Positions 50,765-58,091 of a DNA stretch of 59,360 nucleotides are shown piece after piece. Positions within the stretch are counted from its first letter, which is position 1. Each line of letters opens with the position of its first letter. The translations under genes and the position numbers were made by a program. The stretch is from Candidatus Woesearchaeota archaeon (lineage in GTDB: Archaea; Nanobdellota; Nanobdellia; UBA10117), in NCBI GenBank assembly GCA_964354105.1, contig CAYGXM010000005.1, positions 1 through 59,360 on the forward strand, read 5' to 3'. Below the pieces are notes generated by a model. It had not been told where the DNA came from. It did not search any database and saw nothing but the letters and a program-made list of their open reading frames with translations.

Positions 50765-51751
50765 TTATTTTTGGTATTTTTTATTTTCTGTTTGCTTTTC
50801 TACTGGAGTTTTCCAGAAATAATATGCTGACAAACCAATGAACCACAAAGTCATCAAAGAAGGCATGACTGCATAATTCCACGCCATTCCTTCGGTTATA
50901 TTTACTGCACCTTCAGATAAAAATTTCTGTCCACCTCCATAAACGTCACTCCACCATTTGTAAACTGCAAACATCAGGCCAGTATGTACTGCCATTGCAG
51001 TCGGCAGTGCTGCGGGCTTGCTGAAAATTTTTTCAAGTTTATGTCGCCATGGATGTTTTTGGGCATAAATCCTCTCTTCTTCCTCTCTTGAAATTAACAA
51101 TTTCTTATCTTTAGCCCTGTGATATTTTGCCTTTATCTTGTCTGCTAGTGATTTAAGCTGAGGCGCATATTTTTTAATTAAGTACCTGTACTCTTCGCTT
51201 TCTTTTGTTTTTCTAGCGGACAAATCTTTGTGCTTATCAATTATTTTATCATTATGTTTAAAGCCCTGCGCCATTAAACAACCTGCCGCAGCCATAAAAA
51301 TTATGCTTACAAGCTCGCCACCAAAAAAGTTCAGGGCTTCCCACTCATAGCCCGTAAACTTGAGCTCCGGCCACCATAATGGCACACTGACCATTAGATT
51401 ATGAGCAAAATCATGGCACCAATAATAATAGCAGTGCAGGAAACTGCTGACTGTCGCCATGGCAGATCCCAAAGCAACCTTAGCATAGCCTACATATCGT
51501 ACATACCATGGCTCTGGTTTTGTTGTTGGACTTGATTTTGAGAAATTAGCATCATTTCCAAAATAACAGAAATCACAATCACAATCTTCTGGGTGCTGAT
51601 GCTCCTGCACTATTTCTGACAGCTCTGTTGCATCTTTTAGCTCACTTTTGCTGGCCACAATCCCATTTCCATTTTCACTTCCATTTTCCAGCAAATAATT
51701 ATGATTCGGTGTTTCCCCGACTTGCTCATCTAATACATCCTCAAGGGCCAT
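50765..51751 (-). CDS. hypothetical membrane protein with His/Cys cluster
   Basis: 328 aa; HQHPEDCDCDFC; several TM segments. Confidence 0.7.
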   Translation of the reverse strand: MALEDVLDEQVGETPNHNYLLENGSENGNGIVASKSELKDATELSEIVQEHQHPEDCDCDFCYFGNDANFSKSSPTTKPEPWYVRYVGYAKVALGSAMATVSSFLHCYYYWCHDFAHNLMVSVPLWWPELKFTGYEWEALNFFGGELVSIIFMAAAGCLMAQGFKHNDKIIDKHKDLSARKTKESEEYRYLIKKYAPQLKSLADKIKAKYHRAKDKKLLISREEEERIYAQKHPWRHKLEKIFSKPAALPTAMAVHTGLMFAVYKWWSDVYGGGQKFLSEGAVNITEGMAWNYAVMPSLMTLWFIGLSAYYFWKTPVEKQTENKKYQK

Positions 51752-51823: not shown

Positions 51824-52651
51824 TTACAATTCATCTAGCGGGCTTTTAATTTTCCTTAGCTCTGCAGATGAGACTTTTGTATAAATTTGTGTTGTGCTGA
51901 GGTCTGCATGGCCTAGCAGCTCTTGGATTTTTCTTACATCCACGCCTGCTTCCAATAAATGTGTTGCAAAGCTGTGCCTTAATGTGTGTGGTGATATTTC
52001 CTTTTTGATTCCTGCCTTGGCTGCAATTTTTTGCATCGCCATTTGAATTGCTCTTGGCTTTAGAGCCCCTTCATTTCCTTTGAAGATGTATTCATCTGCA
52101 GCTGCACCATTTGTTAATTTTTCCAATTCTGGCTTGAGTTTCTCTGCAATGTTGAAGAATCTGTCCTTTGAGCCTTTTCCGGACCTGACCCAGGCGATAC
52201 CTTCATTTAATTCTAGATCTCTCACTTTCAAATTTACTGCTTCAGAAACGCGCAAGCCTGCAGAATACATCAATTCCAGCAAAAGCTTATGTTTTGGATT
52301 GTCTGCAGCAGCTAGCAAGGCGTTAATCTCATCTTTTGATAGGGCAGTTGGCACTCTCTTGGGAACTTTGATGTTTTTGGGTAAATCCACTACCTTCTTG
52401 AGAACTTCTTCGAAAAGGAACTTTATGGCAGATTTGGCTAGGGTCATACTCCTGATAGATACCTTGTGGGGGTTAGCATCATCAACCAAATGTGCCAGGA
52501 AACCTCTAGCATCATCAGAACCTAGCTGTTCAATGTCTTTGTTTGCGAACTCGATGAACTTTTGCAGAAAGAAGTTATATGTCTTGACAGTTCTGGGGCT
52601 GAAACCACGGAGCTTTAATTCTACAGCAACTTTCTCCAGTAGTGTGGCCAT
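51824..52651 (-). CDS. xerA: XerA-type tyrosine recombinase
   Basis: GLRVSEA, GKGSKDR, HTLRHSFATHLL, LGHADLSTTQIYT; no IntI-specific insertion. Confidence 0.93.
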   Translation of the reverse strand: MATLLEKVAVELKLRGFSPRTVKTYNFFLQKFIEFANKDIEQLGSDDARGFLAHLVDDANPHKVSIRSMTLAKSAIKFLFEEVLKKVVDLPKNIKVPKRVPTALSKDEINALLAAADNPKHKLLLELMYSAGLRVSEAVNLKVRDLELNEGIAWVRSGKGSKDRFFNIAEKLKPELEKLTNGAAADEYIFKGNEGALKPRAIQMAMQKIAAKAGIKKEISPHTLRHSFATHLLEAGVDVRKIQELLGHADLSTTQIYTKVSSAELRKIKSPLDEL

Positions 52652-52681
52652 AGGATATTAATTTTATACGCAAATATATAG

Positions 52682-52709
52682 CTTGCGTTTAGTGTATCTT
52701 ATACGCAAG
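52682..52709. other. dif-like recombination site CTTGCGTTTAG-TGTATC-TTATACGCAAG
   Basis: 11-6-11 geometry, arms 9/11 inverted-identical; 31 bp upstream of xerA; extra half-site TTATACGCAAA at 52664-52674. Confidence 0.65.
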
Positions 52710-52733
52710 TTTTGAAGCTAAAATGCTTCAAAA
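52710..52733. repeat. perfect inverted repeat TTTTGAAGC-TAAAAT-GCTTCAAAA
   Basis: 9-6-9, directly abutting the dif-like site. Confidence 0.7.
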
Positions 52734-52738
52734 TGGCT

Positions 52739-52765
52739 TAGATTAAAGAGTTTAATCAATAATCA
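52739..52765. repeat. 27-bp direct repeat copy 1 (TAGATTAAAGAGTTTAATCAATAATCA)
   Basis: Identical to 53099-53125; contains GATTAAA-GAG-TTTAATC. Confidence 0.9.
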
Positions 52766-52850
52766 TACTATTTAGATTGAGTAAAAATAAGAAAAATAAA
52801 AATAAAACAAAAAAAGGACTCTACCTAACTAAAGATTAGTAGCTAGAATC

Positions 52851-52994
52851 TTAGTATCTGCTTCGTCTTGGGGCCTTTTTGGCGTAACATTCTCTGCAAT
52901 AAACTGGCTTACCTTCCGTTGGTTGGAATGGTACTTGGCACGGTTGTTTACATTCAGTGCAGGTTGCATCGAACATTTTTCTTTCGAAATCCAT
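52851..52994 (-). CDS. CxxC-x17-CxxC zinc-ribbon protein, copy A (47 aa)
   Basis: Hand translation MDFERKMFDATCTECKQPCQVPFQPTEGKPVYCRECYAKKAPRRSRY. Confidence 0.92.
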   Translation of the reverse strand: MDFERKMFDATCTECKQPCQVPFQPTEGKPVYCRECYAKKAPRRSRY

Positions 52995-53098
52995 TTTACG
53001 TATTTCCTAGCAATCTTTGAAATCTTATTCAGACGTCTCTGATTTGCTAAAAAATACAGAAAATAGGGGTTTATAAGCTTTAGTAAGCCGATTTAGCC

Positions 53099-53125
53099 TA
53101 GATTAAAGAGTTTAATCAATAATCA
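53099..53125. repeat. 27-bp direct repeat copy 2
   Basis: Identical to 52739-52765. Confidence 0.9.
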
Positions 53126-53138
53126 GATATTTCAGCAT

Positions 53139-53537
53139 CTAGAAATGTGCTGTTATTTTCATTGTGCCATACTTCAGAGCTTCGTATTTCTCGCCCATAG
53201 ATTTAGCCAATGGCATTAAAGCAGGGTTAAAAACATCCATTCCTAGTCTATAATGGCGTTCGGATGTCCACCCCGGTTGGATAGTTTGTGGATCAAAAAA
53301 ACCGAAACCATATACTGCAATGGGCGCATCTACTTTAAGCAAAAGATCGTTTATTAACAGGTTTTTTCGCTCGATGTTGAAATAGGCTTGTTCGTAGCCT
53401 ATTTTTAATTTAGATACTAGCTCTCCTAATTTTGGATTTTGCTTGCTAAATGACTTTAACTCATCAGAAAGAAGTTTCTTAAATTGTTCAAATCTCTCTT
53501 CAGCAACTAGTGCGTCGTCTCTTTTCATTTCAACCAT
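53139..53537 (-). CDS. hypothetical protein
   Basis: 132-aa ORF with own TATA-like box. Confidence 0.65.
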   Translation of the reverse strand: MVEMKRDDALVAEERFEQFKKLLSDELKSFSKQNPKLGELVSKLKIGYEQAYFNIERKNLLINDLLLKVDAPIAVYGFGFFDPQTIQPGWTSERHYRLGMDVFNPALMPLAKSMGEKYEALKYGTMKITAHF

Positions 53538-53636
53538 AGCTTATTGTTAATATTGACATTTAAAAGCCTTATGGCAAGTTTAAGCAAAATTAAGAAAAAT
53601 AAAAAATAATTGACCTCTAACTACTGAAAGCTAGAT

Positions 53637-53771
53637 TTATCTTCCGCGTTTCTTCATGAAGCACTCTCTGCAGAACACTGGCCTTCCTTCTTGTGGTTGG
53701 AAAGGTACTTGTGTCTGTTGCCCGCATTCAGCGCAGGTTGCAGGGTACATCTTTCGTTCTCTAAATTCCAT
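53637..53771 (-). CDS. CxxC-x17-CxxC zinc-ribbon protein, copy B (44 aa)
   Basis: Hand translation MEFRERKMYPATCAECGQQTQVPFQPQEGRPVFCRECFMKKRGR. Confidence 0.92.
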   Translation of the reverse strand: MEFRERKMYPATCAECGQQTQVPFQPQEGRPVFCRECFMKKRGR

Positions 53772-53877
53772 TTTACTTTATCCTAGCAAATCTCTAATTT
53801 CCTCTCAGAAATCGACTACTTGCTTACATAATTAAAATATAGGGGTTTTTAAATCTTTAGGCTCTGCTTAGCCTGCT

Positions 53878-54138
53878 TTACTCCAAAACTGAAATATTAG
53901 CAAAAAGCACATCATCATCAGACCGTTGAGTATCTTCCCAATAATCTGTAAGTTCTTTTGCCCTATTCTTTAGCCTCTTAATCAAATCGGGATTCGATTT
54001 AACATATTTTCCAAGTGGCGAATTTGAACTTGGACCATTCAGCAAACTTTCGATTGAAGCTGATGAAGCTTTATGTATGAATGTTTCAAAGCGATTATCT
54101 AAATAGTTTATTGTGGGTTTTTGATACTCCATCGTCAT
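53878..54138 (-). CDS. hypothetical protein
   Basis: 86-aa ORF with own TATA-like box. Confidence 0.6.
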   Translation of the reverse strand: MTMEYQKPTINYLDNRFETFIHKASSASIESLLNGPSSNSPLGKYVKSNPDLIKRLKNRAKELTDYWEDTQRSDDDVLFANISVLE

Positions 54139-54181
54139 ATATTATTGCCATATTGGCATATATAAGCTTTTCTCACAAACT

Positions 54182-54213
54182 AAAATCTCTGATTTTTGAT
54201 TAAAGATTTTAAG
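54182..54213. repeat. 32-bp direct repeat copy 1 (AAAATCTCTGATTTTTGATTAAAGATTTTAAG)
   Basis: 31/32 identical to 54705-54736; forms a hairpin. Confidence 0.9.
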
Positions 54214-54216
54214 GCT

Positions 54217-54660
54217 TTAGCTCACTTCTGCGGCTAGCGCAGCTAGCCGTTTTTGAGCATAATTATGATCGGCCTCAAGGGCTTTTTTAATTGTCTTTTT
54301 GCCTCTTTTTGGCCCTGCGCATTTGACATAATAGGCCCATAATAGGTCTAAATTCTCTAAAACCAGCTTTGTTCCGCGAATAATGGCATCAAGGCTCTCC
54401 TTGTTGCATTCATCTATGACTTCTCGCGTTATCTCTGGTGGATCCTTGGTATCTTCAAGCATTTCTTGCAGTTTTGCACAATATTCTTTTTGCAAGTTTG
54501 ATAGCTTATCCTGAAGGCTCTTTTCATCAGGCAAGGTTATTGTCTGTTTGATAGCATAGAGGTTTAGGTTAAAGTTTGGCACATATTTAGTTTTATAGAT
54601 AAGAGCCTCTAATTCTTGTGCGTCTCTAAAAAGTTTGATTACGTCAATGTCTTTTGTCAT
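54217..54660 (-). CDS. hypothetical helical protein
   Basis: 147-aa ORF with own TATA-like box. Confidence 0.65.
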   Translation of the reverse strand: MTKDIDVIKLFRDAQELEALIYKTKYVPNFNLNLYAIKQTITLPDEKSLQDKLSNLQKEYCAKLQEMLEDTKDPPEITREVIDECNKESLDAIIRGTKLVLENLDLLWAYYVKCAGPKRGKKTIKKALEADHNYAQKRLAALAAEVS

Positions 54661-54704
54661 ATGAATAATTCTATATTGAAATTTATAAGAGTTTCGAACA
54701 AATC

Positions 54705-54736
54705 AAAATCTCCGATTTTTGATTAAAGATTTTAAG
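54705..54736. repeat. 32-bp direct repeat copy 2
   Basis: 31/32 identical to 54182-54213; overlaps the stop codon of the wHTH gene. Confidence 0.9.
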
Positions 54737-55262
54737 CGATTTTATAGTAAACGTCTTTTCCTTCCTGATCTTTCTTCAGTAAATTCATAGAATACAGCTT
54801 GCTTAGCTTTAAGGCCGCATTTGGCCTTGAGATCTTCAGGTTTTTGGCAACTTCTGCGGCTTGGATTTTCTTCTTTTTCCTCACAAAATCGAAGACTTTT
54901 TGCTCATTTGAGGAAAGCTTGATTTTTGATTCCTTTTCCTTGACAGTGATTCTTTGAGTCTCTATCTTTGCAATTCTGGTACTTAATTCGTCAAGTTTCG
55001 CATTAATTTCATTTAATGCATCAATTACTATCGCTAATAATTTTTCATTGACAATTTTGGCCTGGGTGAGTGGATGCTGTTGCAGTTTTTGCAAATCAGT
55101 ATTCCACTCGCGCAGAACCGCGTGCTCCAGTTTGGGTTTCTGTCTTGGCCGTGATTTAACCGTCGTTGTAACTGCGGCTGCGCGTATTTTTTGCTTGATC
55201 TCCGGTTTAGGCGACGCAGGCCGCTTTTCTGGCTTCCGACGAAGAAAATCAAATAATCCCAT
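54732..55262 (-). CDS. coiled-coil plus C-terminal winged-HTH protein
   Basis: LSSNEQKVFDFV...AAEVAKNLKISRPNAALKLSKL...GKDVYY; ATG at 55262 (MGLFDFLRR). Confidence 0.8.
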   Translation of the reverse strand: MGLFDFLRRKPEKRPASPKPEIKQKIRAAAVTTTVKSRPRQKPKLEHAVLREWNTDLQKLQQHPLTQAKIVNEKLLAIVIDALNEINAKLDELSTRIAKIETQRITVKEKESKIKLSSNEQKVFDFVRKKKKIQAAEVAKNLKISRPNAALKLSKLYSMNLLKKDQEGKDVYYKIA

Positions 55263-55275
55263 GTGTTTTTCGACG

Positions 55276-55330
55276 TTAAACGCGTTAAACATGTGTTTAG
55301 ATGTGTTTAACAGTTAAACACTTTAAACAC
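55276..55330. repeat. array of six TAAAC motifs at 9-10 bp spacing
   Basis: TTAAAC at 55276, 55285, 55314, 55323; reverse copies at 55295 and 55305; includes GTGTTTAA-CAG-TTAAACAC. Confidence 0.75.
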
Positions 55331-55660
55331 TTCAACTATATATACTTTTTGCTATAATTTCGCCAAAAAAGCCAGGGATTTTGGTGAAAACTTAGGAGAA
55401 ATCTGCTAAAAAACTAACAAAATTTTTACTATTTTTTGATCAAAAATTTTATCAAGATTTTTACCGGAAAACCAGGGGAATTTCCCAGGGCCTGCCGCTT
55501 AAACCTAGCTGGAAGTGAGGTAAAATCTCCTTTAAGATTTAACCCTTAAATCAATCTTTAGCTTCAAATTAGCTCAAAAGTGAGTGTTCAGAAGGACTAA
55601 AATCTGCCTAAACTAGCGCCAAAACCTGGAGAGATGAAAAAAGCTTAAGAAATTATTTAA

Positions 55661-57221: not shown

Positions 57222-58091
57222 TTAACAGTTTCGCAAGCCTTCCCCAAACCTAATTTGTTTAGGCTCTTTGCAAGGACGTCTTCCACCATAATAGCGCTCC
57301 TTCAAAGCGCTGCAATCTATTTTCTTGCCATCCCAAGTTATTGCAGCTTTTTGGTTATTGCAATTAGGATAAGCGCTGCAGCCTTCCTGGCCAGTATATG
57401 TTAATTCCATGTTGTATTTCTGGCCTAATTCTTTTGCCAGTACTTTAACATTATCCCATTCTTCTTCCGAAAGCTTTTCCAAATCCCTTGCCCTGCCCTG
57501 ATAAACCGGCTTGAGGAAGTGCAATCTTGTCTTTTGATAGTCTGCCCTGCAATGTTTATCAACAATCTTGATTATATTTTCCAAATCATTGTAATTTTCC
57601 TTTAGCACGCACGTATGGAATGAATAATTGTACTGCAAATCTCTTGCCCGCTTAACGCTCTCAAGCATGTTCTTTATTGGCTGCCGGTCGAAAACATCCA
57701 GCGGATTTTCGGTGCTTGTTGCTATGCAGTCATGTAAATCCCAGTTGCCATGTATCGAAAATACCAATTCATCAATATACGGCCTGCAGGCCTGCAATTC
57801 TTCAATTGGCAAGGCTTCGTGATCGCTATAATTGCCGGATGTTAAAACAATAACTTGTCTGTTCTCGGCTTTTGTGGCCTTTACAATTCGCTGAAAATCC
57901 GGGTGCTTAGGTGGGTCGCCGCCAGAAAACCTAATAATCTCAAAATCAGCATATTCTTTGACAAACCTTATGATGCTGTCTAAAGATACATATGTAGCTA
58001 TATCTGCAAAATCTGACACCGCTTCGGATGAGCACATCTTGCAATGAAGCGAGCATGCGTTAGTTATCTCAATTGTTAGCTCTTTTGACAT
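57222..58091 (-). CDS. radical SAM protein with C-terminal Cys cluster (SPASM/Twitch-like)
   Basis: CSLHCKMC, FSGGDP, C-terminal CSAYPNC...C...C. Confidence 0.92.
   Translation of the reverse strand: MSKELTIEITNACSLHCKMCSSEAVSDFADIATYVSLDSIIRFVKEYADFEIIRFSGGDPPKHPDFQRIVKATKAENRQVIVLTSGNYSDHEALPIEELQACRPYIDELVFSIHGNWDLHDCIATSTENPLDVFDRQPIKNMLESVKRARDLQYNYSFHTCVLKENYNDLENIIKIVDKHCRADYQKTRLHFLKPVYQGRARDLEKLSEEEWDNVKVLAKELGQKYNMELTYTGQEGCSAYPNCNNQKAAITWDGKKIDCSALKERYYGGRRPCKEPKQIRFGEGLRNC

Follow-up and report, generated by a model that had tools for sequence, protein, structure and literature searches.

Immediately upstream of a tyrosine recombinase gene, xerA, a DPANN archaeon of the Woesearchaeales carries a short inverted repeat that resembles dif. 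The locus raises the question of whether this repeat is the recombination site of the encoded enzyme, an element of the promoter only, a docking site for captured genes or a product of chance. The window, i.e. the whole stretch of DNA analyzed, is a complete 59-kb contig; the assembly to which it belongs measures 723 kb in 14 contigs and is 87% complete. The initial annotation of the window had reported xerA together with a dif-like site, a third half-site and a 9-6-9 inverted repeat, and each of these was found where it had been placed, with 30 nt between the dif-like site and the ATG of xerA.

Recombinase gene and genome context

xerA (51824-52651, minus strand) is an ORF that encodes a tyrosine recombinase of 275 aa. 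The product scores 242.8 bits with the NCBIfam model NF040815 (recomb_XerA_Arch; cut-off 220) and remains below the cut-offs of the profiles for IntI, XerC, XerD and XerS. Its Pfam domains are Phage_integrase and a SAM-like N-terminal domain, and the closest solved structure is that of P. abyssi XerA (4a8e, E=3.7e-50). The catalytic residues R134, K159/K162 (GKGSK loop), H222, R225, H248 and Y257 give the series R-K-H-R-H-Y. By its sequence, the product is XerA. No other PF00589 match and no other tyrosine recombinase was detected in the genome, which is 87% complete. RadA is encoded in the same genome, so crossovers and chromosome dimers are to be expected. The 3' neighbors of xerA are core lipid genes, for CDP-archaeol synthase (carS) and a CDP-alcohol phosphatidyltransferase. 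Identity of XerA to its relatives drops with taxonomic distance, from 95% (genus) through 55-69% (family) to 43-54% (order), which fits vertical descent.

Layout of the dif-like site

The dif-like site (52682-52709, plus strand) is 28 bp long, has an 11-6-11 geometry and reads CTTGCGTTTAG-TGTATC-TTATACGCAAG. The left arm CTTGCGTTTAG occupies 52682-52692, the spacer TGTATC 52693-52698 and the right arm TTATACGCAAG 52699-52709; the two arms are complementary at 9 of 11 positions. On the gene strand the site extends from -58 to -31 relative to the ATG of xerA. The third half-site, TTATACGCAAA (52664-52674, plus strand), has the same (direct) orientation as the right arm and reads TTTGCGTATAA on the gene strand, at -23 to -13. 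Between the two, a TATA-like box of a putative promoter was read from the sequence as CTATATATT on the gene strand (52673-52681, minus strand), at about -30 to -22 with its center approximately 25 nt before the ATG. The order on the gene strand is therefore dif, TATA-like box, half-site and ATG. Inspection of the sequence ahead of xerA found no Shine-Dalgarno sequence, hence the mRNA is probably leaderless. On its other side the dif-like site is abutted by the perfect 9-6-9 inverted repeat (52710-52733), TTTTGAAGC-TAAAAT-GCTTCAAAA, which could be an accessory or insulating hairpin. An Rfam search of 52500-55500 returned no match.

Chance repeat or genuine site

11-6-11 repeats that pair at 9/11 positions or better number 289 in the 723-kb genome, which means that an inverted repeat of this kind is not significant by itself; it is this abundance that would favor a repeat arisen by chance in AT-rich DNA between genes. 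The full dif-like site, however, has a single occurrence in the 723-kb, 87%-complete assembly. When the genome was scanned with a weight matrix built only from the sites of seven other genera (own genus left out), 52682-52709 ranked first of 1.45 million positions. The runner-up, C7:12701, was rejected on inspection, being neither palindromic nor equipped with the CG cores. Half-site-like 9-mers number 11 in the 59-kb window, and three of the 11 fall inside the 46 nt from 52664 to 52709. Uniqueness, matrix rank and clustering of half-sites together indicate that the context, not the repeat, makes the site significant.

The 28-mer of E. coli dif, taken verbatim from the literature for this comparison, agrees with 52682-52709 at 17 of 28 positions. 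The spacers are identical at 5 of 6 positions, as the initial annotation had claimed. T. kodakarensis dif also shares 17/28 bases with the site. Identity of 17/28 to either of these dif sites is reached by about 3-5 per 10,000 random 28-mers.

Conservation in relatives and metagenomes

Among relatives that range from members of the same family to members of the same class, xerA is preceded by clear 11-6-11 sites that read GTTCGTWTAA-TGTATR-TTATACGAAC. These sites have 19-22 of 28 bases in common with E. coli dif and up to 20/28 with T. kodakarensis dif. A genome-wide scan of 61 related genomes with a degenerate site pattern gave 33 matches in 30 genomes, against 14 matches for the reversed pattern that served as control. 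A match lies within about 500 nt of xerA in 16 of the 61 genomes, and in 14 of these 16 it is the sole match. Metagenome contigs were scanned starting from the site, which yielded more than 120 matches, and 80 of these were read. A xerA homologue within 1.2 kb was found on 38 contigs, with the site 5' of the gene in all 38; 12 contigs are without a recombinase despite enough flank, two have a recombinase farther off and 28 are too short, so that the site is linked to xerA on 38 of the 52 informative contigs. A search upstream of DPANN xerA genes had been proposed with the initial annotation, and 11-6-11 sites are what it returned in these 16 relatives and 38 contigs.

dif sits anywhere between 6 and 460 nt before the ATG of xerA; in many metagenome lineages it abuts a TATA-like box or is 6-50 nt away from the xerA start. 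The spacer occurs in both orientations relative to xerA, which makes the inverted orientation in this genome unremarkable.

Three species of the genus can be compared: the genome studied here, G001, and a sister species represented by the metagenome contig L082, whose XerA is 93% identical. A block of 59 nt comprising half-site, TATA-like box, dif and one hairpin arm is invariant among the three, and G001 and L082 have exactly the dif-like site found here. Conservation fades in the leader and past the block, the flanks being approximately 80-87% identical. The 9-6-9 repeat is identical in L082; in G001 (locus L003) the 9-bp stem is retained and the loop inverted, from TAAAAT to TATTTTA, a typical palindrome flip.

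The chance reading is thereby already refuted by the comparative sequence data: a site that is unique, tops an independent matrix, recurs by xerA in dozens of genomes and lies within an invariant block leaves it a negligible probability.

Within the family, a CTATWTAWTT box followed by TTGCGTATAA is kept at the same place in G001, G003, G010 and G013. G003, G010 and G013 have a roughly full 11-6-11 proximal site that ends at the ATG of xerA, and in G010 the distal site has decayed. From this pattern of proximal and distal sites, the family seems to have had two tandem dif sites, of which different lineages kept different ones. Additional half-sites near the ATG of xerA occur in G041 and in the genus g18 as well. 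Two more dif-like sites were observed in G003 downstream of a zinc-finger gene at a contig end (C5:157-298, locus L036). If, as is probable, that end joins the contig beginning with xerA, G003 would have as many as three sites. The scaffold of another relative, G020, has a 100-N gap 230 nt upstream of xerA and is therefore unusable as a closed reference.

Site, promoter and possible autoregulation

The palindrome overlaps the BRE position of the putative xerA promoter, and another half-site stands between the TATA-like box and the ATG. This arrangement would suit a transcriptional operator of xerA that is nothing else, bound by XerA or, for example, by the product of a winged-helix (wHTH) gene that is a conserved neighbor. 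An operator of this sort would not call for the 11-6-11 geometry and the sequence of dif, which the site has; nor does it agree with single-copy conservation across the class while the promoter context changes (6-460 nt, both orientations). The family member G005 bears on the same point. Its site (C1:51975-51998) has kept the position that it has here, downstream of the zinc-finger and wHTH genes, whereas its xerA is located on another contig (C2:52917-53711) with no site ahead of the gene. Both junctions are flanked by core genes that are syntenic with other contigs of the own genome, from which it follows that a rearrangement broke the module exactly between dif and xerA and that the site was kept. 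Persistence of the site with no adjoining xerA argues that it is more than a promoter element, and a role as operator only appears improbable. Plausible unlinked sites were found in other relatives, e.g. in G025, where the site is 20 kb from xerA; they fit the linked and unlinked arrangements published for archaea (PMC5357621).

A recombination site may also act on transcription. With dif at the upstream (BRE) edge of the TATA-like box and a half-site before the ATG, XerA occupying dif or the half-site would probably repress its own promoter, itself probably leaderless. Judged from the position of site and half-site, autorepression of xerA, which would be a form of the autoregulation proposed with the initial annotation, has about an even chance of being real. 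The extra half-site of the promoter, which is lineage-specific, may be left over from a second site that is decaying.

The wHTH gene (54732-55292, minus strand) encodes a coiled-coil and winged-helix protein of 186 aa with weak ArsR-, TrmB- and Lrs14-like matches, all below cut-off. Its place near xerA/dif is conserved throughout the order; this family has it on the 5' side, others have it convergent at the 3' end. A regulatory or accessory role of its product in the xerA/dif module is possible.

A repeat with the core GATTAAAGAKTTTAA, part of a 7-3-7 palindrome, was observed at 52739-52765, 53099-53125, 54198-54229, 54721-54752 and approximately 55314-55328. The copies precede xerA, the 47-aa zinc-finger gene and genes of 86 and 147 aa; the wHTH promoter contains a similar motif. 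Two copies are identical at 27 of 27 positions; those at 53099 and 54198 are missing from L082 together with the adjoining genes. Their position upstream of genes makes these repeats more operator- or promoter-like than recombination sites, and they look like a shared operator/promoter element of a local regulon.

Variable neighbor genes

The initial annotation had further suggested that the site may be an integration hotspot for adjacent variable genes. The flanks do vary between sister species: four single genes present here within 10 kb (50765-51751, 53139-53537, 53878-54138 and 57222-58091) are absent from L082. The gap between xerA and carS holds two different plus-strand genes in G001 and none in G003 and G005. 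None of the indels relative to L082, however, is located at dif or bounded by dif-like sequence, and the suggestion is not supported here. The window contains no second dif-like site (best other match 18/28), and no full or half site outside 52664-52709 bounds the variable genes. An assignment of these genes to IMEX or dif modules was rejected for the window on the same ground.

A broader form of the idea would make the locus an integron-, pdif- or IMEX-like platform for Xer-mediated gene capture, with dif as docking site and the extra half-site as the scar of earlier insertions, either between dif and xerA or in the array of neighbors. The four single-gene indels lend themselves to it, as do several relatives. 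In genus g18 and in L073 a single ORF separates a full site from a half or degenerate one at the start codon of xerA; L069, L097 and L108 carry a different ORF of about 100 aa between dif and xerA; and G003 may have up to three dif-like sites. The single-ORF inserts and the multiple sites of G003 agree with a housekeeping XerA/dif that doubles as a small capture platform, single genes being inserted between dif and a decaying second site. The layout of full site, TATA-like box and half-site seen here would then be an empty or collapsed state. The window itself gives a different picture. Beyond the lack of a second site and of bounding half-sites, the interval between dif and xerA holds only the TATA-like box, and the dif-adjacent zinc-finger gene (47 aa) is conserved across the family. 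The array genes point toward the recombinase, and the GATTAAAGAKTTTAA repeats of the array look like regulatory elements of the genes that follow them. Such a platform is thus unlikely here, and a double role for the housekeeping module is similarly doubtful.

Integrons, including the archaeal ones, share with this locus a tyrosine recombinase, a site by its gene and small variable genes nearby (PMC9668308). They differ in that attC-type sites are absent here, the neighbors are co-oriented with xerA and so opposite to cassettes, and the indels are not at the site. The IntI-specific additional domain around patch III was defined in PMC9668308; XerA is without this insertion of roughly 45 residues, about 65 residues (180-245) of VchIntIA (2a3v) aligning to 20 here. 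The score with the IntI profile TIGR02249 is 223.7, under the cut-off of 265. An identification of the locus as an integron was rejected on account of the missing domain and the low score.

Matching 28-mers turned up on three viral contigs as well, in two cases between terS and terL. These two are phage-like contigs from IMG/VR, in which the dif/lox-like 28-mers lie between the small and large terminase genes (L045, 2794-2817; L046, 4152-4175). The 28-mer of L046 is identical to the site adjoining xerA on the metagenome contig L054. No homology was found between the three viral contigs and other loci from the same scans, and they are therefore uninformative on integration at this locus.

Chromosome position

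GC skew in the window follows the coding strand. On a 180-kb contig of G019 the cumulative skew has a maximum within 1 kb of dif; it has several extremes, which track the coding strand. The check by GC skew that had been proposed with the initial annotation is thus uninformative, since skew that tracks gene orientation does not place the terminus. The distance from the single orc1/cdc6 gene to the module is 14 kb in G041 (C3: orc1/cdc6 at 6.3 kb, dif at 20.85 kb) and 64 kb in G019 (C1: cdc6 at 78 kb, dif at 141.7 kb), a proximity unexpected for a terminus-associated site. With the skew following the coding strand and orc1/cdc6 this close in two relatives, a terminus position of xerA/dif is not supported. 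A terminus location of dif is not strict in archaea (PMC2958812), and it is not required for FtsK-independent archaeal systems.

Comparison with known systems

The XerA/dif systems of P. abyssi, T. kodakarensis and T. acidophilum likewise have a single XerA with the same catalytic residues (PMC2958812, PMC11840125). Like the locus described here, archaeal XerA/dif has a unique 28-bp 11-6-11 site and no known FtsK requirement; its core is of the TAA-N6-TTA type, and that of the present site reads TAG-N6-TTA. The dif site of T. kodakarensis is ChIP-validated (PMC11840125). The dif sites of P. abyssi and T. kodakarensis have 15-17 of 28 bases in common with the present site. The outer arm reads TTGCG/TTCG here and TTGGA/TTTGA in the Thermococcales, and one arm here ends in TAG. 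The extra half-site and the abutting hairpin are further differences from the Thermococcales systems, in which dif does not adjoin xerA (PMC2958812), unlike the present site with its position on the xerA promoter.

Linkage as such has been described. An 'individual xerA/dif module' is known from some archaea, and both linked and unlinked arrangements occur (PMC5357621). Haloferax volcanii and Halobacterium salinarum have dif upstream of a xerA-containing operon (PMC11840125). The haloarchaeal and other archaeal linked modules likewise carry the dif-like site on the 5' side of xerA. In contrast to the haloarchaea, the organism here belongs to the DPANN (Woesearchaeales), xerA is monocistronic, and the site, no more than 30 nt away from the gene, overlaps the core promoter.

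Among bacteria, XerS/difSL (streptococci, lactococci) and XerH/difH (Helicobacter, Campylobacter) also combine one recombinase with a site adjoining its gene. These two systems depend on FtsK, and difSL is 31 bp long with an 11-bp center. An identity of the present protein with XerS was rejected: NF003462 gives 80 bits, short of its cut-off of 267, and the spacer of the present site measures 6 bp. Cre/loxP of phage P1 is another case of one recombinase on a near-palindromic site, and we take the relatives' sites TTCGTATAATGTATATTATACGAA to have about 25 of 28 bases in common with the loxP core. loxP has a 13-8-13 structure and is phage-borne, whereas the protein here matches XerA, not Cre, and is encoded among chromosomal core genes, with CDP-archaeol synthase next door.

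XerA/dif and linked xerA/dif modules are thus already in print, and the locus is not a new kind of system. A literature search found no paper on DPANN in combination with XerA or dif. What the comparative data add is the wide occurrence, in an uncultured DPANN group, of a dif site linked to the xerA promoter.

Proposed function

The locus is most probably a single-recombinase XerA/dif module for chromosome dimer resolution, with the cognate dif 30 nt upstream of the gene. The initial annotation had proposed a single-recombinase module, and the proposal is supported: the protein is a XerA equivalog and the sole tyrosine recombinase detected, and equivalent sites lie 5' of xerA in relatives. Counted against dimer resolution were the nearness of the module to orc1/cdc6 in two relatives and a left arm that ends in TAG and not in TAA. 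The core reads TAG-N6-TTA in this genus and TAA-N6-TTA in relatives, and the latter is the most conserved feature of archaeal dif (PMC11840125). TAG variants adjoin xerA elsewhere too, e.g. in L056.

If XerA works here as its homologues do in P. abyssi and T. acidophilum, dimers would arise when sister chromosomes cross over in a RadA-dependent manner. Each 11-bp arm would bind one XerA monomer, and two copies of dif would synapse as a tetramer. Cleavage by Tyr257 would take place at the borders of arm and spacer, and strand exchange over the 6-bp spacer via a Holliday junction would restore monomers without FtsK. Differences between the two arms, at positions 8 and 11, may determine which strands are exchanged first.

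For the Woesearchaeales-type DPANN, the sites give a probable dif consensus of approximately WGTKCGTWTAA-TGTATR-TTATRCGAACT, which is nearer to bacterial dif and loxP than to Thermococcales dif. As dif is usually welded to the xerA promoter in this group, it offers a simple marker for genome annotation. The pair is a compact combination of enzyme and substrate for biochemistry, and on it the idea can be tested that a recombination site doubles as the operator of its own recombinase.
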